DNA of 64,000 nucleotides from a virus (IMGVR_UViG_3300037470_000672:32001-96000); one strand, 5' to 3'; counted from the stretch's first letter, positions 1,871 through 46,562 are shown. The notes: generated from the letters alone by a model not told the origin. Numbers and translations are program-made.

Positions 1871-1906
1871 GTCTCGGAATTTCAAAGATCCGAGCATCCG
1901 TTCACC
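1871..1906 (-). repeat. Solo CRISPR repeat copy (33/36 to array repeat)
   Basis: GTCTCGGAATTTCAAAGATCCGAGCATCCGTTCACC on + strand. Confidence 0.9.
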
Positions 1907-2345: not shown

Positions 2346-2381
2346 GTCTCGGAATTTCAAGGACCTGAGCATCCACTCAAG
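2346..2381 (-). repeat. Solo CRISPR repeat copy (31/36); contains the stop codon of the upstream gene
   Basis: GTCTCGGAATTTCAAGGACCTGAGCATCCACTCAAG. Confidence 0.9.
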
Positions 2382-3342: not shown

Positions 3343-3378
3343 GTCTCGGAATTTCAAAGATCCGAGCATCTTTTCAAG
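3343..3378 (-). repeat. Solo CRISPR repeat copy (33/36), 14 nt upstream of the XRE ATG
   Basis: GTCTCGGAATTTCAAAGATCCGAGCATCTTTTCAAG. Confidence 0.9.
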
Positions 3379-8071: not shown

Positions 8072-8198
8072 TGGCGGAGAGCGGTGGTCCTGATCCAGTC
8101 TCGGAATTTCAAGGATCCGAGCATCCTTTCAACATCCATAACGCATGCGCGTCCTGACGGGTAGCAGCCGTAGCCCGGGCCTCCCGGGTTCACTCTCC
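8072..8198 (-). pseudogene. tRNA-Ser(GCU) interrupted by a CRISPR repeat plus a 5-bp duplication
   Basis: Acceptor GGAGAGT/GCTCTCC-G-CCA; anticodon arm ACGG-CTGCTAC-CCGT; removing 41 bp gives an 86-nt class II tRNA. Confidence 0.85.
8098..8133 (-). repeat. Solo CRISPR repeat, 36/36 identical to the array repeat, flanked by ATCCA direct repeats
   Basis: ATCCA at 8093-8097 and 8134-8138. Confidence 0.95.
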
Positions 8199-8204
8199 AC
8201 AGGT

Positions 8205-8291
8205 TGGCAGCGGGCAGCGGAATCGAACCACGACGCCTAAGCGCCCTCCAGTTTTCAAGACTGGTCGCTCCCCATGAGCAGTACCCGCTTC
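8205..8291 (-). tRNA. tRNA-Ser(UGA), imperfect stems
   Basis: CCAGT-CTTGAAA-ACTGG anticodon arm, long variable arm, TTCGATT loop, 3' CCA. Confidence 0.7.
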
Positions 8292-8297
8292 ATGTAG

Positions 8298-8389
8298 TGG
8301 TGGCCCGAGCGAGAGTCGAACTCGCATGCCCCTCACAAGGCACCAGGGTCTGAGCCTGGCGTGTCTACCGGAAATTCCACCATCGGGCC
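8298..8389 (-). tRNA. tRNA-Leu(CAG)
   Basis: GGCCCGA/TCGGGCC acceptor, CCAGG-CTCAGAC-CCTGG anticodon arm, TTCGAC loop, CCA end. Confidence 0.9.
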
Positions 8390-8390
8390 A

Positions 8391-8466
8391 TTGTGCGGAC
8401 GGCAGGAGTCGAACCTGCACTGACCGGGATTTGACGCCGGACCCTCTGCCGTTGGGGTACGTCCGC
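8391..8466 (-). tRNA. tRNA-Leu(CAA)-like, short variable arm, degenerate (ends CAA)
   Basis: GCGGACG/CGTCCGC acceptor; GCAGG-TTCGACT-CCTGC T-arm; mismatch in the anticodon stem. Confidence 0.6.
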
Positions 8467-8960
8467 TAAGATTTCTCCTTCCAGCAGGCGCACTGAGGCG
8501 GGCGGTGATACGTACACCACGGCTCCGTTAGCCGGGCTTGCGTGACCGTGCTCTCCTGCGCCTCTCCCTGCGCGCAGCTCAATGGGAGGCATGCCGTACT
8601 TGGCGTGCAACAGCAGCTCCTTGCCCTCCGCTTTGGCTACCCGCCGAACCGTCTTCCAGATGCGCGCCGTCTCAGCGCGTAGATCGACCCCAGGGCGTGC
8701 CTCCCAAAGCGCCCGCTTACGCTCCCTGGCCGCCTCCTGGGCGGCGCAGCGTTTGGTCCGCTGCTTGGCTCGGACCCTGGCAGCTCGCTCGGCTTGCGCT
8801 GTCTGACGCGCCTCTTTCTTGGCTTCGATGGTTGGACAAGCGCGCTTCACGAGCCTGCCGGTCTTGTCGGAGCACGGTAGGCAGTAGCGGCGGGTATCGT
8901 CCAGGCGAGGTTTGCTCGGGGCGAGCTTACCCGTCTCGCAGCGGGGGCAGACCCAGCGTC

Positions 8961-10003
8961 TCACGCGGCGGGCTTCTTCCGGGTCTTGTAGGTGGCCTTG
9001 AGCGTGTCGAACAGGTCGGTGTTGTCGAGCATCGCAACGAAAGCGTCGAGGGATGTGCGGTCGATGGTGACGCGATCGACGGTACCGCTGACGGTGCCCA
9101 TGAGACCGCCGGATACGGGAAGCCCGATTTCTTCGAGGCGCTTGCGCTGCGCGTACCACTCGGTGTTGTAGGTCTCGACACGTGCCATCTTGCGCAAGTG
9201 CTCCTCGCGCGTACGCGCCTGCTTTTCACCCTGCTGCTGAACGTACTCGTCCCAGGGCATCAGGACTTCTTGCGGTCGCGCGACCCCGGAGAGCCACTCT
9301 TTGGGTGCGCCGCGGCACAGAGCGACGTTGATGCCCTTCCCTCCGGACCGTTCCTTGGCCCAGCACCCGCGGATATTTCCCACGTAGCCGTCGAAGCCGA
9401 GAATGATCCCCTTCCTCACGTGGCGGAAACCAGCTTTGGTCGAGATGCCGATGGCGTACGTCTCGCCGATCTGGATGTCTTTGCGTTTCATGCCCAGCTC
9501 ACTCCCAGGTCCAACTCCTGGGCCTTTTGCAGTACCTCATCCAACCGCTCCAGGCGGTCTGTGAGGCGGTTGTCGTCGTAACCGCACAGGATGTGCCGCC
9601 CCGATCGTCGGAGGGCCACGGTGCCGTCCTCCTGGGGAACGGTTCGCATCTCGCCACCGTAGGTCTCGGTCTCGGTGCGGAAGGGGGCGCGGACCTTGTC
9701 CTGGTTGAGCGCGCGCATGATAGCGCGGCGCATGTTGGCCACCTCTTCGGCGGGGACCGACCCGCGCAGATCTGGGTCCGCGTACCCCAGCATCCGGAGA
9801 AGGACCACAGCCGTGCGATTGGCCACATTGAGCGAGCACTCGGACTCGCTGTAGGTCACCCACCCACCCTGACAGGACGCACAACCCCACTCGGGAACGG
9901 GCACGCCGTCCGCCTCAGCGAACTCGCGCGTCTGCTCGCAAAGGAAACAATGCTCCCGTACCTCTTGCTTGGGGCCGTCGGTGGGGCAGAAAGTAACGCT
10001 CAT
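8961..10003 (-). CDS. Two hypothetical genes (8961..9491; 9488..10003)
   Basis: ATGA overlaps; promoter TTGCTC-17-TATACT at 10043-10071 with conserved leader. Confidence 0.65.
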
Positions 10004-10137: not shown

Positions 10138-10173
10138 GTCTCGGAATTTCAAAGATCCGAGCATCTTTTCAAC
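10138..10173 (-). repeat. Solo CRISPR repeat copy (34/36, variant B), 9 nt from the palindrome core at 10183-10198
   Basis: GTCTCGGAATTTCAAAGATCCGAGCATCTTTTCAAC. Confidence 0.9.
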
Positions 10174-11467: not shown

Positions 11468-11503
11468 GTCTCGGAATTTCAAGGATCCGAGCATCCATTT
11501 AAC
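11468..11503 (-). repeat. Solo CRISPR repeat copy (34/36)
   Basis: GTCTCGGAATTTCAAGGATCCGAGCATCCATTTAAC. Confidence 0.9.
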
Positions 11504-12422: not shown

Positions 12423-13043
12423 TTACTCCCAGGCGCGGGAGAACTCCCGGTCGCGGAAGGCGTCGGCGAGCCCTGTGATCTGCTTGAGCCGCAAGACTTC
12501 GTCCGGATCCATGCCCAGTTCTTGGCTAATCCGCTCGTTGCTCCAGTGATGTTTGGTCAACGCCGTCACGAGCTTGGCGCTCAGCTCCACCTGATGCGTC
12601 CCACGAGCCAGGTTGTGCCGCACGGTGGACGTCATCCGGTCCTGAACACCCTTGTTCAGCTCCACCAGGGGGATGTAGCCACCCAAAGACTCCCGAATAT
12701 CCTCCCGGTTCTGGATAACGGTAGTGCGATGGAAACCGTCCACCACCACGTAGTCACCGGCATAAGGGTCTTTGGCTGCGACAATGGGCATCGTCACCCC
12801 ATCCTTCCGGATGGAAAATTCCAAAAGCTTCATCTCCGGCGGGGCAACGACGTTGGGGTTGTAATCATTGCCCTTGACCTGCTCAGACGGGACCAGCTTC
12901 ACGCCTGTTACAGGGTGGGGGAGCCCGAGGAATGCTTGGAGTGCTTCGCTGATCTCGTTGAAGACCTTCACACGCTCGTCGAGCGACAAGTCTGCGCTTT
13001 CGGCCAGGGTACGCTTGAACGCTTCCAAGTCATCCCACATCAC
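12423..13043 (-). CDS. IbrB-like ParB/Srx-domain protein
   Basis: GNDYNPNVVAPPEMKLLEFSIRKDG.TMPIV; VVDGFHR; STVRHNLARG. Confidence 0.85.
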   Translation of the reverse strand: MMWDDLEAFKRTLAESADLSLDERVKVFNEISEALQAFLGLPHPVTGVKLVPSEQVKGNDYNPNVVAPPEMKLLEFSIRKDGVTMPIVAAKDPYAGDYVVVDGFHRTTVIQNREDIRESLGGYIPLVELNKGVQDRMTSTVRHNLARGTHQVELSAKLVTALTKHHWSNERISQELGMDPDEVLRLKQITGLADAFRDREFSRAWE

Positions 13044-14313
13044 GCGCCTCCGAAAACCGTGCAATCAGAGAAAGCTGGCGCTCCATCTCCCGCTTGGTAG
13101 GGGAGAAACTCAACCCCTTTACCCAGTAATCGTTCTTGAGCAGTACCTTCACAATCCTGCGCCAAGAGGGAAGGCGGCATCTGACTCCGTTCACGAGCAG
13201 CCCGGATTCTAGGCGCTTGTCGGGGCATGCGTCGGGGATACCCTTCGTCCAGTCCGGGAGAAGATTGGCTTCACGAAGCGCCCTTACCATTGGCTCATCG
13301 TTGCGGTGTTTGCGCCACCAACGGAGGAAGGTGCGGATCTTGGTCCGATAGTGCGCAGCGATGTTGGGGGGCATGGTGTTGAGCAACAGCTTCGCGTAGC
13401 TCTTGTGCGTGTGTCCCGGAGGAAGAACCACCTTGAGGTTGCCCATGATGTGGGACTGTGTCTTGGAGTAGCGGCTCCCGTAGTTGGCCCCTTCTACACG
13501 AGCGACCACTTTGGTCCATGTTTCGGGTTCCAGGAGCTTGAAGAGGTAGAGCCCTTTGCGCTGGTCATCACCATAGGGCTGGCAAAGGCGCATCTGATGC
13601 AGCGTCAACCCAGCTAAGTGCATGAGGTCGTAGATTCTGTTGTAATCCCAGCCGAGCTTGCCGTTGGCGGTCCAAACGTCCTCGGTAGTCCAATCGTAAA
13701 TGGGGTAGGCGTTGCACACCGTATCGGACAACCAGGTGGTCCACATGCGACCATCCAGGGTATCCTTGTGGGTGTTCTTGATAGTCCGATAGCGGTTGAG
13801 GCTCTCGTCGCTACGAATGGCGACCAAGCAAGCGGTCTTGGAGCCATCAGCGAACCACCCCCCAAACTCAGGGACGAATTCCTCAAACTCCATCCCCTTG
13901 CGGAAGAAGGGGAAGAAACCGGGGTCTGAGATCACGCCCCTGTGCTCAGGAAGCGGACGGATCCAAGCGTCGCGCTTGTCCGGATCCCAACACATCCAAT
14001 GCGGCTGAATCTGAGATACAGCATTCCGAAGATGGATGGGAAGACATACCCACCAAGGCCGGATATCTTGTGTAGCGAACACCCGTTGGACGTAGCTGAT
14101 CGTATGTGCGTACTGACCTTCCAAATCGACCAGAAGAACATCCAGAGGAAGACGTCCCAACTCCCTGGCGGCCCCCAAGGCCAGGTTGAGTAATACTCCG
14201 CTGTCCTTACCCCCGCTGAAGGACAGGTAGACCTTGTCAAAATGGGCGTAGATTTCGCGAATCCGCCGTCGGGCAGCACAGAGCACATCCTCGGTCAGGT
14301 ACGTCTTCGGCAT
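13030..14313 (-). CDS. IbrA-like PAPS-reductase/DUF3440 protein
   Basis: SFSGGKDS; IRSDESLNRY; PIYDWTTEDVW; MRLCQPYGDDQRKGL; LLKNDYW. Confidence 0.85.
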   Translation of the reverse strand: MPKTYLTEDVLCAARRRIREIYAHFDKVYLSFSGGKDSGVLLNLALGAARELGRLPLDVLLVDLEGQYAHTISYVQRVFATQDIRPWWVCLPIHLRNAVSQIQPHWMCWDPDKRDAWIRPLPEHRGVISDPGFFPFFRKGMEFEEFVPEFGGWFADGSKTACLVAIRSDESLNRYRTIKNTHKDTLDGRMWTTWLSDTVCNAYPIYDWTTEDVWTANGKLGWDYNRIYDLMHLAGLTLHQMRLCQPYGDDQRKGLYLFKLLEPETWTKVVARVEGANYGSRYSKTQSHIMGNLKVVLPPGHTHKSYAKLLLNTMPPNIAAHYRTKIRTFLRWWRKHRNDEPMVRALREANLLPDWTKGIPDACPDKRLESGLLVNGVRCRLPSWRRIVKVLLKNDYWVKGLSFSPTKREMERQLSLIARFSEARDVG

Positions 14314-19598: not shown

Positions 19599-21956
19599 CT
19601 ACAGAATCTCGCACTGCCCGCCCGCGCAGGCCACCGTCCCCTGGATGTGGTCGTTCGTGTCGTCCTCCACCGCCATCTGCGCGTAGTCGACGTCGACGAA
19701 CTCCCGCTTGAGATCTTCCCAGAGCTTGATGTTGTTCACGTGCTTGAGGCAGCGCGTCATCTTGCGCACGTCCCCCTCGAAGTGGCGCTCGGCGAACTGG
19801 TTTGCCCGTCGGATCCAGTCCTTCTTCAACCGCATCCGTTCGACCCTGGCGCCGATCTCGTCGGCCTGCTGCGCAAGCTCCACTGCGGCTGAGATTTCCT
19901 TCGTCAACGTAGACGCACCACGGCTTTGGAGAAGGCGCTCCACCTTCTCCTCAGCCCGCTCTGCACTGGTCCTGGCGATGTCGTAGGCCACCTCCAGCTT
20001 GGTGTCTTCCAGGGTTTTTAGCCCCAGCGCGTGCTCGCAGGCGTCCCAGAGATTTCCGTCGTAGGCGTGCTGGCCATCTACGATGAGCCCAGATGCCATG
20101 ATGGCGCCGTTCCCGTATTCAGCCACAACCTCTTCTACCATCGGGACGGCGACGAAGGGGGCCTGGGGGTAGTCCAAGTCCCCTGACGCAGGAAGAAGGG
20201 ATACTCCGGCCAAGTGGAGACGGTTTTCGTAGATGAACCGGCCGACCTTCTCCCATTCCCCCTCACCCACTTCGACCGTGTTGGAAACGTTGTGGGAGAG
20301 CCATGGTTGGGTGCAGCGTGAGGGCACTTTACCGGCGTCCACCCAATGCTTCTTGGTGCTCAGCACCCGTTCGAGCAGCCCGATAGCGCCCACCTGGGCC
20401 TTGGTCAGCGCGTCTTTGCCGGGCTCGATGAGGAAGGTGATGACCTCGGTCTTGCCGTTGGGGTCCCAAACGGACTTCTCACAAGCACGCAGGTTGTGCA
20501 TCTTGAAAAGCTGGTAGGCCGGCTCGTTGATGTTGGCCTGCACCCGACGAAGGACGCGGCGGGCGTGGTGTCCGTGGATCCCGGAAGCGGACTTGAGGAC
20601 ACAACTCCCCGTACCTTCCGGCTTGAGACAGGTAGCACGCGCAGTCAGATTTACGCCCAGTTTGGGAGCAAGCTCCTTGTTCACCGCCAGGACGAGCTTA
20701 GCCATCTCCTCTTGGAGCGCGGGGTCGAAAGCGACGTCCGGGCTGTCCATCATCCCCGTCATGGAGACACCCAGAAGCGCCTCACGACGGGTGATACGCT
20801 CGGACACCGGTCCCAGGTAGGCGAAGTCCGTGTAGCCGGCCTGTAGGGTTCCGATGATAGCGGCGGCTCGCGTAGCCCGACGGAACGTTTCATCATCGTA
20901 AATGCGCGCCATGTTCAGAGTCGACAAATTGCACATTTGCCACCCGGATTCTCCGGTTTCGGAGCATACGGGCCACATACCGATCTCCAAACATGGGTTG
21001 TAGACGATCTCTGTATCATCGCCGAAAACAAACCCCGGCTCACCCCACTCTCTTGCCAGGTTCAAGACACGCTGGAAATCCCCCCATTGGGTTTTTTCAC
21101 GAAGTAGTAACACGCTGTTGTTGCTGCGGCCTCGCTGCGGGTTCTTGTGCATCCAATCGCCGATCTTTGCTGTCATCATCTCCTGGTCTTCGGGGGAGAA
21201 TAGTGAAATCGAGGCCGACCTCCTAACTCCACCTGATAGAACCGCATCAGACTCGTGCATCACGATGTCGTAGGCGTGGATGGGCCGAAGCTGGTCCCCC
21301 TCTGCGCAGGCGCGCTCAAGGATGTCACGCGCCTTCTCCAGCGCGCGTTTGAGCGGTTCGGGGCCGGGTGCTTTACACCCGGAGGATCGAATAAGCGCCC
21401 CCTCAGGGCGGATGAGAGAAAAATCGAACTCGATATACCTGCCGCGGTACTGCGGAAAGTCGACCCTCCCACCAATGAAGTAACTCGACAGTAGAGCGCC
21501 GAAAGCGTCGGCCCACCCCTCGATGGAGTCGTCGATGGTGTGGATGACGGAACTGCCGTTCCCTTTGGGAGGGGCGATCTGAGGGAGCTTGGCGACGTGG
21601 TGCTGCTGGACAGAAAAACCCACCCCGCACCCACACAGAAGCAAAAAGACCGCCTCCTGGAAGAACCGGGGGCGGTCGCAGTAGGACGTGCAGCAGTTGT
21701 ACAGCTTGAGGTTGTGGCGCTCGATACAGTCCCCTCCGTACTGGAGCGCGCGTTGACTACCTAACACAAGCCCGTCAAGGAAAGCAGCCTCAGCAAAGTC
21801 AATCTCGTCGTCCACCCCCATACCCGCGTACTTCTTGCGGTGCATGTCGAACATGCGCTTGCCGGCTTCGGGTAGCGTTTCTCGGCGGTGCTGTTCGGGG
21901 ATGGTTCGGGCGTACTTGGAAGTGAAGACGTAGCTGCTCAAAGCTTGCTGAGTCAT
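19599..21956 (-). CDS. nrdJ: Ribonucleotide reductase catalytic subunit (probably class II, NrdJ-like)
   Basis: LYNC; NPCLEI; CNL; KPEGT; C-terminal CAGGQC; no beta-subunit gene nearby. Confidence 0.85.
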   Translation of the reverse strand: MTQQALSSYVFTSKYARTIPEQHRRETLPEAGKRMFDMHRKKYAGMGVDDEIDFAEAAFLDGLVLGSQRALQYGGDCIERHNLKLYNCCTSYCDRPRFFQEAVFLLLCGCGVGFSVQQHHVAKLPQIAPPKGNGSSVIHTIDDSIEGWADAFGALLSSYFIGGRVDFPQYRGRYIEFDFSLIRPEGALIRSSGCKAPGPEPLKRALEKARDILERACAEGDQLRPIHAYDIVMHESDAVLSGGVRRSASISLFSPEDQEMMTAKIGDWMHKNPQRGRSNNSVLLLREKTQWGDFQRVLNLAREWGEPGFVFGDDTEIVYNPCLEIGMWPVCSETGESGWQMCNLSTLNMARIYDDETFRRATRAAAIIGTLQAGYTDFAYLGPVSERITRREALLGVSMTGMMDSPDVAFDPALQEEMAKLVLAVNKELAPKLGVNLTARATCLKPEGTGSCVLKSASGIHGHHARRVLRRVQANINEPAYQLFKMHNLRACEKSVWDPNGKTEVITFLIEPGKDALTKAQVGAIGLLERVLSTKKHWVDAGKVPSRCTQPWLSHNVSNTVEVGEGEWEKVGRFIYENRLHLAGVSLLPASGDLDYPQAPFVAVPMVEEVVAEYGNGAIMASGLIVDGQHAYDGNLWDACEHALGLKTLEDTKLEVAYDIARTSAERAEEKVERLLQSRGASTLTKEISAAVELAQQADEIGARVERMRLKKDWIRRANQFAERHFEGDVRKMTRCLKHVNNIKLWEDLKREFVDVDYAQMAVEDDTNDHIQGTVACAGGQCEIL

Positions 21957-22195
21957 GCTCTGTTCACCAGACAAAAAGGTGATTAGATACTCTCATCTAT
22001 AGAGGTATCTGTGGGGCGACATTGTGTAGCTTGCCAGGTCCAGATCGAGTGAGCCGACCTTCCATCCTACTCGTGGGACCAGTCGCTGACTAGGGTGTTC
22101 TGGTCGCGCTAGGCGGTTTTCTCGACGAGAAACGTGCGGCTTGCTAGCTGCACACCCAAAAAACGCAACCGGTTAGCAGCGTTGCTTGGTGGGGC

Positions 22196-23988: not shown

Positions 23989-24172
23989 GTATCGGAATTC
24001 CATATATCCGAGCATCTTTTCATCCCCACGCACGCCTCGAACGCCCGTAGCTGCCCACTCGTGTCTCGGAATTTCAAGGATCCGAGCATCCTTTCAACCA
24101 GTCGAGCTACCGCACGGCGACGGTCGCGTCGCTCTTGTCTCGGAATTTCAAGGATCCGAGCATCCTTTCAAC
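23989..24172 (-). CRISPR. CRISPR array: three 36-nt repeats, two 38-nt spacers
   Basis: Repeats at 24137-24172 and 24063-24098 (identical) and 23989-24024 (degenerate trailer, 29/36); starts 23 nt after the cas12 stop. Confidence 0.95.
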
Positions 24173-24195: not shown

Positions 24196-25974
24196 TTACT
24201 CACCTCCATCAGCGCTTTGCAAGCGCCGCGCTTGCTGCTCTTCGAGCATCCCGCGAAATCGTTGCTGCCTTCGGGAAAGCACCTTCTTTCCACTGTCTTG
24301 ACCCTCGCGAGCGCCTTCCTCGACAGGCGTCACCGCCGGGGCTCTCGCGAGCAGGTTGTGCGCGGCGTTCTCGTCCTGATCCCACTCCGCGCCACACTGT
24401 TCACACGTGTAGCGGAGTTTGGCTGCCTGGTCCCAGGTGTTGCGGTGCTGACAGCAGTGACAATCCGTTGTCGTCCACTCGGCTGGTACCTCGGCAATAT
24501 CGGCACCTCGCCGGCCGCATGCGTTGTGGATGCGCTGGCGCAGGTCTGATACGCAGGCGACAAATCGCCCGTAGTTCTGCTTGCGCTGGTCGCGGGTGCC
24601 TTCTTCGGCATCGCCCCGCTTAGTCGCGTCACGCAGGTCAAACTTCTCCAGCACCACTCGCGAATAGGCGGTGCTGAGCGTGTTGGCGAACTGCCGGTAC
24701 ACCTCTCGTCGCTGGCGCAGAACCCGGCGCGACTCCTCAACCTCCCACTGCCCAAGGTGCAAGTCGTTGCGGCGCCACGCCTCCAGTCGCTCCACCAGGT
24801 CGGCAGGCATCTGGTCACGATGCTCGTCGTAGAGCCGCAGGACCCGTCGTGGGTTGCGCCAGAGATGGACGTGCGCGGGGTCTGCGCCCATCGCCTCGTG
24901 GTCGACTGTCTGGAGCCATGCGTGGATGCGGGGCTTGACCTCGTCGAATATCTTATCCCGCACAGCTCGGATGCTGTCTGCATGCTGGTCCTTGCGCAGC
25001 ATCATGGCGGGGAGCCGCAGCTCGCCCTCGCGGCCGAATTCGTCGACCCAGTAGGCGACGCGCAGACTGCCGTCGTCAAGTAGCCGCCAGCCGACGTCGA
25101 TCGCTACGGTGCCGTGGCCGCATGCGACCTTTTCAGGCTCGGCGTCGACGACGAACTGCACCTTCCACACGTATCGGGTCGCGCGCTTTTGGCGTAGCAA
25201 GTGGACCCACTTGATCCGTCCCGCGGGCAACGGCTGATGGTAGTCGATGGGGATGACGGCGAAGATCGGATCGCGGCCTTCGCTGCCGACGCGAAAGCGC
25301 ATCACGGTCTTCTGTAGCCGCCGGCGCCCCTTGCGCGAATCGGATTGGGCGGTCGGTCGTTCGATCCAGCAGCGCGTGTCGGGCTCGTGGATGAGCGCAG
25401 CATCCAGCCCGCCCTGAAGCTGGACCGCGAGATGTCCGTTACCGGTCCAGCGCTTGAAGTGCGGGTCCGCGATTGCTTTGCTGGCCTGTTCGACCGCCTG
25501 CTCCACGATGAGGTACGTGCCCCAGTACAGACCGGACGCAGCGCGGGCGCTTTTCACCTGGTCGGCGGCCGTCTTGTTGACGTCCGCTAGCGCCGTCTGA
25601 ACAACGGCGTCGTCCGCAATGAGTGCTTTAGCAACGCGAAGGTCGGCGCGAGCCGCCTTCAGGCGAGGCTTCAGCTCGCAGGCGCGGTCTCGCAACATCT
25701 GCGTCGCCAGCTTGGCAGCCGAGCGGGTTTGGCGACGTAGGAGGTTGATCTCCGCGCGCACGTTGTGCAGTTCATCGGCCAGTGTTTTGACCTCGCCTGC
25801 GAGCTTTTCGGTGTCGGGGTGACCTTCGAGCACTTCGCGCACCTTCTGGCGCCGCGCTCGCTCGATCTCGACAAGCGCGTTGTGATAACGATGCGCCAAG
25901 TGCATCTGATCACTGACCAGGTCAGCCATGTCAGTCGCTGTTTTAGCGCGGTACTCGTAAATACGGACTGTCAT
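24196..25974 (-). CDS. cas12m: Type V CRISPR effector, Cas12m-like (V-M/V-U1), 592 aa
   Basis: Long helical N-terminus with LYWGTY and GHLAVQLQ; RuvC D293 (AIDVGWR), E443, D534 (DQDENAA); Cys Zn-finger; adjacent array. Confidence 0.8.
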   Translation of the reverse strand: MTVRIYEYRAKTATDMADLVSDQMHLAHRYHNALVEIERARRQKVREVLEGHPDTEKLAGEVKTLADELHNVRAEINLLRRQTRSAAKLATQMLRDRACELKPRLKAARADLRVAKALIADDAVVQTALADVNKTAADQVKSARAASGLYWGTYLIVEQAVEQASKAIADPHFKRWTGNGHLAVQLQGGLDAALIHEPDTRCWIERPTAQSDSRKGRRRLQKTVMRFRVGSEGRDPIFAVIPIDYHQPLPAGRIKWVHLLRQKRATRYVWKVQFVVDAEPEKVACGHGTVAIDVGWRLLDDGSLRVAYWVDEFGREGELRLPAMMLRKDQHADSIRAVRDKIFDEVKPRIHAWLQTVDHEAMGADPAHVHLWRNPRRVLRLYDEHRDQMPADLVERLEAWRRNDLHLGQWEVEESRRVLRQRREVYRQFANTLSTAYSRVVLEKFDLRDATKRGDAEEGTRDQRKQNYGRFVACVSDLRQRIHNACGRRGADIAEVPAEWTTTDCHCCQHRNTWDQAAKLRYTCEQCGAEWDQDENAAHNLLARAPAVTPVEEGAREGQDSGKKVLSRRQQRFRGMLEEQQARRLQSADGGE

Positions 25975-30423: not shown

Positions 30424-30597
30424 GTGCCCGGCTCTTTCATTTCCGAGACGTACCCTCAATCCGCCCGTACGGGCGGATCGGGGTTGAAGAGAGGGTGCTC
30501 AGATCCTTGGAATTCCAAGACCGACGCGCTGTCAGCAACACCAACCCGAGCCGTCTTAGGTGTCTCGGAATTTCAAGGATCCGAGCATCCTTTCCGG
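30415..30597. CRISPR. Head-to-head repeat cluster: degenerate + copy 30415-30449, + copy 30483-30521, minus copy 30562-30597
   Basis: Aligned by eye to the array repeat; 33-nt and 40-nt intervening segments. Confidence 0.75.
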
Positions 30598-46459: not shown

Positions 46460-46562
46460 GTCTCGGAATTTCAAATATCCGAGCATCTGTTCATTGGTGC
46501 GGGCCATATCCACCGGATTGGCCGTGGTCTCGGAATTTCAAAGATCCGAGCATCTTTTCAAC
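46460..46562 (-). CRISPR. Orphan mini-array: repeat 46527-46562 (34/36), 31-nt spacer, degenerate repeat 46460-46495
   Basis: Direct reading; same repeat family as the 23989 array. Confidence 0.85.

Follow-up and report, generated by a model that had tools for sequence, protein, structure and literature searches.

A full-length type V-M CRISPR repeat interrupts a tRNA-like gene in a Cas12m-encoding phage with many sense-oriented solitary repeats

Guide RNAs have been combined with tRNAs in engineered tRNA-gRNA arrays, where the guide RNA is placed within or next to tRNA genes so that tRNA processing can set its ends, and type V-K CASTs use short delocalised crRNAs that target tRNA genes. The locus described here differs from both: it is a natural phage locus, the CRISPR repeat lies inside the tRNA body, and there is no transposon. 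Viral solitary CRISPR repeats are known mainly as decoys for host Cas proteins. Racrs, or viral solitary repeat units, are single CRISPR repeats in viral genomes that are transcribed as small RNAs binding Cas proteins (PMC10651486). The phage studied here also carries single repeats, but Racrs mimic host repeats and occur without cas genes, whereas the phage repeats match the array of the phage's own Cas12m, and many copies are present, in 5' UTRs and in a tRNA-like gene. With Cas12m and two arrays of its own, the phage falls outside the Racr definition of a host-repeat mimic in a virus that has no cognate cas gene. A second group of described systems, comprising creA, scaRNA, tracr-L and mini-arrays, consists of standalone repeats that give cr-like RNAs and serve regulation rather than immunity (Shmakov et al. 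2023, 10.1101/2023.03.03.530964). In contrast to the phage copies, which are spread genome-wide, creA, scaRNA and tracr-L lie in or beside cas loci and rely on partial promoter complementarity. Guides taken from the flanks of the phage's solitary copies have no second match in the phage's own genome, and regulation of distant phage loci by partial complementarity was rejected on that ground. As far as we found, a Cas12m phage peppered with its own sense-oriented repeats, one of them in an allo-type tRNA-like gene, has not been described.

A third point of comparison is TnpB with its omega RNA in IS200/IS605 elements, where an RNA scaffold is followed by a flank-derived guide and the filled site is protected by displacement of the TAM/PAM (Meers et al. 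2023, 10.1101/2023.03.14.532601). Cas12 descends from TnpB, and guides drawn from a phage's own genome would resemble the guide architecture of that ancestor. Unlike the TnpB system, the phage repeat comes without TnpA, element ends or empty sites, and any nuclease activity of its effector is putative. The characterised Cas12m enzymes bind DNA and do not cleave it, and silence through that binding (PMC11013384, PMC10442227, bioRxiv 10.64898/2026.03.26.714355). They need only a crRNA, which they process themselves; PmCas12m cuts after repeat nt 2-3 and at guide nt 17-18, and cryo-EM of its crRNA shows a two-stem pseudoknot layout. The PAMs reported for these enzymes include TTN, YTN and other T- and C-rich motifs.

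The window, by which we mean the whole 64,000-nt stretch of viral DNA that was analysed, is part of a 175,906-nt IMG/VR record (G000). Its cas12m gene (24196..25974, minus strand) encodes a 592-aa protein that matches a solved Cas12m (PDB 23vw_A, E=2e-80) and GoCas12m (8pm4_A, E=3e-23) and carries a Cas12f1-like TNB domain (PF07282). Judged by these matches, the effector adjoining the array is Cas12m (type V-M), as expected from the original prediction. In common with the Mm, Go and Pm examples of type V-M, the system has an effector of about 590 aa, a 36-nt two-stem pseudoknot repeat and an array beside the gene, and lacks Cas1. It differs from them in being carried by a lytic-looking 176-kb phage, in having about 19 extra solitary repeats genome-wide, and in its RuvC residues. 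The phage protein aligns D/E/D at the three RuvC positions, as does 23vw_A, whereas MmCas12m has HDD and PmCas12m NDD; the phage enzyme may differ from these two in catalytic potential.

Two arrays accompany this gene. The cas12m-adjacent array (23989..24172, minus strand) consists of two perfect repeats (24063-24098 and 24137-24172) and a degenerate third, which lies 11 nt ahead of a possible TTG start. The main array has six repeats and is seen at both contig ends of the record, with repeat-spacer units shared between G000:1-411 and 175767-175872, both of them beyond the window. The two ends of the assembly probably join via this main array; a simple exact-overlap test of the record ends gave no overlap, and CheckV estimates completeness at 83%. 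No protospacers for the main array were found among INPHARED phages, and 20-mers of two spacers had no match in viral contigs. Main-array spacer 2 matches a conserved gene of three Micromonosporaceae genomes (L027-L029; Micromonospora and Actinoplanes) over its first 20 nt, with GCGA flanking the site. The identity ends at nt 20 and about one chance match is expected, so this match was rejected as a protospacer. The match is at chance level, yet it might be a clue to the host since mature Cas12m guides are about 17-20 nt long.

The interrupted gene (8198..8072, minus strand, 127 nt) is the last of a four-gene phage tRNA cluster. The cluster begins with tRNA-Leu(CAA) (8393..8466), continues with a type II tRNA whose anticodon loop, CUCAGAC, is read as Leu(CAG) (8301..8389), and then with tRNA-Ser(UGA) (8205..8289), which ends 6 nt upstream of the interrupted gene; all are on the minus strand. 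A scan for promoters and terminators around the cluster found none. A zinc-ribbon-like ORF (CPRC...CLPC; 8365-9159, minus strand) runs from about 8960 into the first tRNA genes; on other contigs gene callers make it 199 aa long, with a stop ahead of the tRNAs. The 65-nt 5' part of the interrupted gene (8134..8198) contains an 8-nt acceptor strand, a 6-bp D hairpin, an anticodon arm with the loop CUGCUAC and a variable arm, and ends in a first TGGAT (8138..8134). A full-length, 36-nt solitary repeat follows within the T-loop (8098..8133, minus strand). The 26-nt 3' part (8072..8097) opens with a second TGGAT (8097..8093) and supplies the rest of the T-loop, the 3' strands of the T-stem and acceptor, the discriminator G and CCA, so that the minus strand from 8097 to 8072 reads TGGAT-CAGGACCACCGCTCTCC-G-CCA. 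In the 127-nt RNA the order is GGAGAGUG..., the GCU anticodon loop, the variable-arm hairpin, UUA-UGGAU, the 36-nt repeat, and UGGAU-CAGGACCACCGCUCUCC-G-CCA. The original prediction, which had seen a perfect repeat copy interrupting this gene, is borne out: the T-loop repeat is identical at 36/36 positions to both perfect repeats of the cas12m-adjacent array, and by this identity it is a type V-M crRNA scaffold. It differs from the main-array repeat at three positions.

The same prediction took the two TGGAT motifs for a 5-bp target-site duplication. The statistics of such duplications are weak when taken alone: an exact-boundary flanking direct repeat of at least 5 nt occurs at 0.2% of random sites, which gives a chance of about 4% among 20 copies. 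Decisive support came from scanning metagenome contigs for the 20-nt would-be guide, that is, the sequence that follows the repeat. The scan recovered an uninterrupted 87-nt homologue on contig SDBS01031387.1 (L024:3641-3727). The 5' 12 nt and the 3' 26 nt of this gene are identical to those of the window gene (26/26 for the latter), while its D, anticodon and variable arms have diverged by compensatory changes that keep the pairing. Because this intact homologue carries TGGAT once, within a T-arm reading ...GUGG-AUCAGGA-CCAC..., the comparison indicates that the 5-nt duplication at the repeat insertion is genuine. Aligned in this way, the window gene is a gene of the same kind with 41 nt (the repeat and the second TGGAT) added in the T-loop. 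The intact gene is followed downstream by a tRNA-Ser(UGA) gene. Its contig shares no protein similarity with the phage; it encodes a LAGLIDADG-containing ORF, a GT2 and a hexapeptide transferase, and the nearest cluster of the GT2 is partly phage-derived.

Removing the repeat and one TGGAT had been predicted to restore an 86-nt tRNA-Ser(GCU). On the evidence of the intact homologue this reconstruction is right as to sequence, but the gene is not a canonical tRNA by the Rfam RF00005 model or ARAGORN at default. ARAGORN makes no tRNA call on the reconstruction with its threshold lowered to 50%, and the interrupted gene of the window gives no Infernal tRNA match, not even a partial one at E<=10. 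The intact homologue is itself missed by both programs at default settings, and is called tRNA-Ser(GCU) by ARAGORN only at 90% of threshold. Both sequences fold with an 8-bp acceptor, a short T-stem, a long D-stem, a long variable arm and an unusual T-loop, AUCAGGA. The T-stem of the homologue has 4 bp, giving an 8 + 4 acceptor branch, and that of the window gene 3 bp with an A.C mismatch at the fourth pair. The D arm has a 6-bp stem and a 3-nt loop in the window gene, as against 5 bp and 4 nt in the homologue, and the stem of the variable arm is 4-5 bp in both. In their long D-stems with tetraloop-like loops and in their long variable arms the two genes agree with the (8/4) allo-tRNAs, whose acceptor branch is 12 bp (8 + 4).

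Earlier finds of (8/4) allo-tRNAs and tRNA-Ser come from phages and from metagenomes of soil and sediment (Mukai et al., NAR 2017, PMC5389517). The window gene shares with these RNAs the 8-bp acceptor, short T-stem, discriminator G, long variable arm and long D-stem closed by a tiny loop, as well as the setting in a phage tRNA cluster, the soil or sediment source and the tendency to be overlooked by standard tRNA finders. Two features set it apart, namely a T-loop split by 41 nt and a T-stem of three pairs plus the A.C mismatch. It is also more degenerate than its intact homologue, with that mismatch, a bulged anticodon stem and a worse ARAGORN score. On its predicted fold, the window gene is best described as an (8/4) allo-type tRNA-Ser(GCU)-like gene, possibly decaying. 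Given this architecture, the failure of ARAGORN and Infernal does not refute the insertion. The 127-nt RNA is predicted to keep the cloverleaf and to carry the repeat hairpin on an extended T-arm, and the interrupted copy is unlikely to be a working tRNA. The locus would thus be a natural example, from a soil phage, both of an (8/4) allo-type tRNA and of a guide RNA carried within a tRNA scaffold.

The T-loop repeat belongs to a large family. The record contains 29 repeat copies, which fall into the six-repeat end array, the three-repeat array after cas12m, a two-repeat unit and singles; 19 lie outside the perfect array repeats. All 29 lie on the minus strand, which also bears every one of the 23 ORFs longer than 500 aa, so every repeat copy is in sense orientation. 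A strand-specific insertion mechanism could also explain this bias. Within the window, solitary copies lie at 1871..1906, 2346..2381, 3343..3378, 10138..10173, 11468..11503 and 30562..30597, and a two-repeat mini-array at 46460..46562, all on the minus strand. Among these, the copy at 10138 is a full-length type-B variant, the degenerate copy at 2346 lies 22 nt before an RBS and ATG, the copy at 3343 precedes the ATG of an HTH regulator gene by 14 nt, and the second repeat of the mini-array is 12 nt before an ATG. Overall, 10-11 of the roughly 20 non-array copies end 10-26 nt ahead of a long ORF's start codon, with GGAGG often present in the gap, and the ORFs so preceded include a UvsX-like recombinase, a head-tail adaptor and the HTH regulator. 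In a genome this compact, short intergenic spacers account for part of this closeness to start codons. The T-loop copy is the sole non-array copy inside a gene. About 40 nt downstream of the copy at 30562-30597 is a partial inverted copy (window 30494-30521, plus strand; G000:62494-62521) with 4 mismatches in a 28-nt core. It is the only plus-strand copy in the genome and may form a long transcript hairpin with its neighbour.

Conservation within the family points to an RNA structure. Per-position conservation is 89-100% at positions 13-36 of the solitary copies (the 3' 24 nt), against drift in the first 8 nt, and most solitary copies have a decayed 5' end; the T-loop copy is perfect over all 36 nt. 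The original prediction had read the 36/36 identity as a sign of recent insertion. This reading does not hold, because the 3' 24 nt of the solitary copies are conserved anyway, apparently by function. The repeat can form an H-type pseudoknot, with stem I pairing positions 6-11 with 18-23 and stem II pairing 13-18 with 29-34. Stem I shows covariation from G8-C21 to A8-T21, the pair 8-21 being GC in 10, AT in 5 and GT in 3 of the copies among 19 distinct ones, and stem II is nearly invariant. A two-stem pseudoknot with covariation is thus present, in the layout seen in the PmCas12m crRNA. The exact repeat is absent from other IMG/VR contigs.

A parallel case occurs in a distant phage, a complete 109.7-kb genome (G001) that is the only other viral contig found to encode a related Cas12m (33% identity). 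Its repeat is a different one and occurs in a seven-repeat array plus 7-8 scattered copies. All but one of its 15 copies lie on the minus strand, and the exception is found between tRNA genes of the plus strand, on which it also lies, past the 3' end of an odd tRNA, with the whole repeat beginning about 5 nt and its conserved core about 15 nt beyond that end. Searches of the main array of the window's phage against this genome, and of the G001 array against the window's phage, gave no protospacers. In two lineages, therefore, scattered and co-oriented solitary repeats follow whichever repeat the effector uses, with one copy each in a tRNA cluster, and the scattering and the tRNA-cluster copy in both argue for function over accident. 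The odd tRNA (L021:309-387) has an anticodon loop of 12 nt where 5 are expected, which may be an enlarged loop or a small intron. Just upstream of this tRNA and the solitary repeat lies a DUF3800-VI RNA motif (Rfam RF02915; 45 bits, above the gathering score) at L021:189-241 (G001:83088-83140).

Taken as a whole, the T-loop insertion looks like one of about 19 solitary sense repeats (about 20 non-array copies) and not like a homing transposon. The explanation we favour, and to which we give an about even chance of being correct, is that the solitary repeats are binding and processing sites for Cas12m on phage transcripts, and that the copy in the T-loop turns a tRNA-like gene into a crRNA gene. 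The T-loop of an allo-type tRNA-Ser(GCU)-like gene has taken up a full-length repeat of the phage's own type V-M system, with 5 nt duplicated. Because the solitary repeats keep the pseudoknot that Cas12m is expected to bind, and Cas12m matures its own crRNA, the enzyme would bind and cut the sense transcript at each copy. At copies that lie in 5' UTRs, the second cut would hit the RBS and start codon or come shortly past them, which would point to post-transcriptional control; a stabilised, protein-capped 5' end is also conceivable there. The T-loop repeat would be transcribed together with the tRNA cluster, and cleavage of the 127-nt RNA by Cas12m would split and inactivate the tRNA-like RNA and release a crRNA. 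The guide of this crRNA, 17-18 nt if PmCas12m is a guide to its length, would be the tRNA's own T-arm and acceptor 3' strand, UGGAUCAGGACCACCGC(U). Since the repeat end GAC occupies the PAM position, the phage's own DNA would be spared, and intact alleles in other elements, such as the 26/26 match in L024, would be possible binding targets. One observation goes against a DNA target of this kind, in that the PAM position of the L024 allele reads ATG, which misfits the TTN and YTN of the characterised orthologues. Excision of the repeat to restore the tRNA was rejected, as the published Cas12m cuts would take away the T-arm together with some of the acceptor strand. On the favoured reading, Cas12m may serve to process or regulate the phage's own transcripts, or may take guides from the phage's own genome without spacer acquisition; no description of either use of a CRISPR effector was found in the literature searched.

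The original prediction instead saw a minimal non-autonomous element that inserts with a 5-bp duplication and whose flank-guided Cas12m converts TTN-flanked, repeat-free alleles of relatives. In its favour, the duplication is genuine, a scaffold followed by a flank-derived guide mirrors the TnpB omega RNA, and D/E/D at the RuvC positions leaves nuclease activity possible. The reconstructed empty site does have the TTA that had been noted before the would-be guide, which fits the TTN and YTN PAMs of characterised Cas12m, and the filled site reads GAC as claimed. However, the natural intact allele has ATG at this position, and the expected PAM does not extend to the other copies: TTN lies upstream of 1/20 copies (background 0.039) and YTN upstream of 2/20, both at background under a simple-insertion model. 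The prediction's caveat that no other copy has a clear duplication proved accurate, with none at the 19 other non-array copies; a transposable element would be expected to show a duplication of fixed length at most copies, and transposon-like behaviour is not supported at 1/20. The absence of an integrase, noted earlier for the window, now extends to the 176-kb record, where searches for Cas1, Y1_Tnp and Phage_integrase that gave matches in control genomes found no Cas1, Y1 transposase or tyrosine integrase, although a host-encoded enzyme is possible. All four contigs spanning the 8072-8198 site, drawn from four samples, carry the repeat and share at least 99.9% identity, contigs from four additional runs (Logan) break at the repeat with no deletion joint across it, and the predicted empty junction GCGTTATGGATCAGGACCACC had 0 matches in viral contigs and metagenome contigs. 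There is thus no presence/absence polymorphism of the T-loop repeat among the four spanning contigs, which come from a clonal population and have low power. No characterised Cas12m cleaves DNA. Cas12 enzymes cut on the PAM-distal side, 18-23 nt away, so that this guide would not cut at TGGAT, and the duplication was accordingly rejected as the footprint of a staggered, flank-guided Cas12 cut. Neither spacer integration nor IS200/IS605 insertion could be fitted as the origin; the latter makes no duplication. Gene conversion from the cas-adjacent array also fails at the junction, since the TGGAT in its leader sits 3 nt off the repeat. The homing model is largely unsupported, the single TTA being the one support left to it, and we regard it as very improbable.

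Two other readings that give the guide a DNA target keep part of this logic. In one, the repeats make guides and remove their own PAM, and Cas12m silences the alleles of repeat-free competitors, here their (8/4) tRNA-Ser(GCU) gene, without any homing. Binding alone would suffice, as it does for Cas12m silencing, virus-borne mini-arrays against other viruses are known from the literature, and the guide matches the intact allele 26/26 on an unrelated contig whose GT2 is nearest a partly phage-derived cluster. We nevertheless think it unlikely: that allele has the misfitting ATG, no further match to the 20-nt guide turned up in 2.9 million viral contigs or 185,579 species genomes, RBS and start regions are ill suited as conserved targets, and no competing relatives of the phage were present in the databases searched. 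A broader version, which we consider distinctly improbable, would have the repeats mark the phage as self by making the adjacent sequence a Cas12m guide while shielding their own copy, so that repeat-free alleles are silenced or cut and about 19 transcripts are controlled. If Cas12m does cut, with an active D/E/D RuvC, repair could copy the repeat into a relative and lead to a gene-drive-like spread of repeats. Lastly, the locus might be functionless, illegitimate or microhomology recombination having dropped an array repeat into a dispensable and already degenerate gene. The degeneracy of the window gene relative to its homologue (the A.C mismatch, the bulged anticodon stem, the ARAGORN failure at 50%), the GGAT motifs present both in the repeat and in the T-loop, and the position of this copy alone inside a gene are consistent with such an accident. 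Against it stand the perfection of all 36 nt where most solitary copies have a decayed 5' end, the sense orientation shared with all other copies, the fixation in every sample, and the independent presence of a repeat in the tRNA cluster of G001; a neutral origin is in our judgement rather doubtful.

Several proteins of the phage, including those that neighbour the interrupted gene (211 aa and 176 aa), had no homologue outside the clone among 5.8 billion proteins. The phage was found in at least 17 soil and sediment runs from 2019-2025, and no RNA run was among those listed with it. Across the soil and sediment metagenomes of many studies from these years it is essentially clonal, with at least 99.9% identity. 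Its other products include a PAPS reductase/DUF3440 protein and a protein with a weak match to class II ribonucleotide reductase (window 13030-14313 and 19599-21974).
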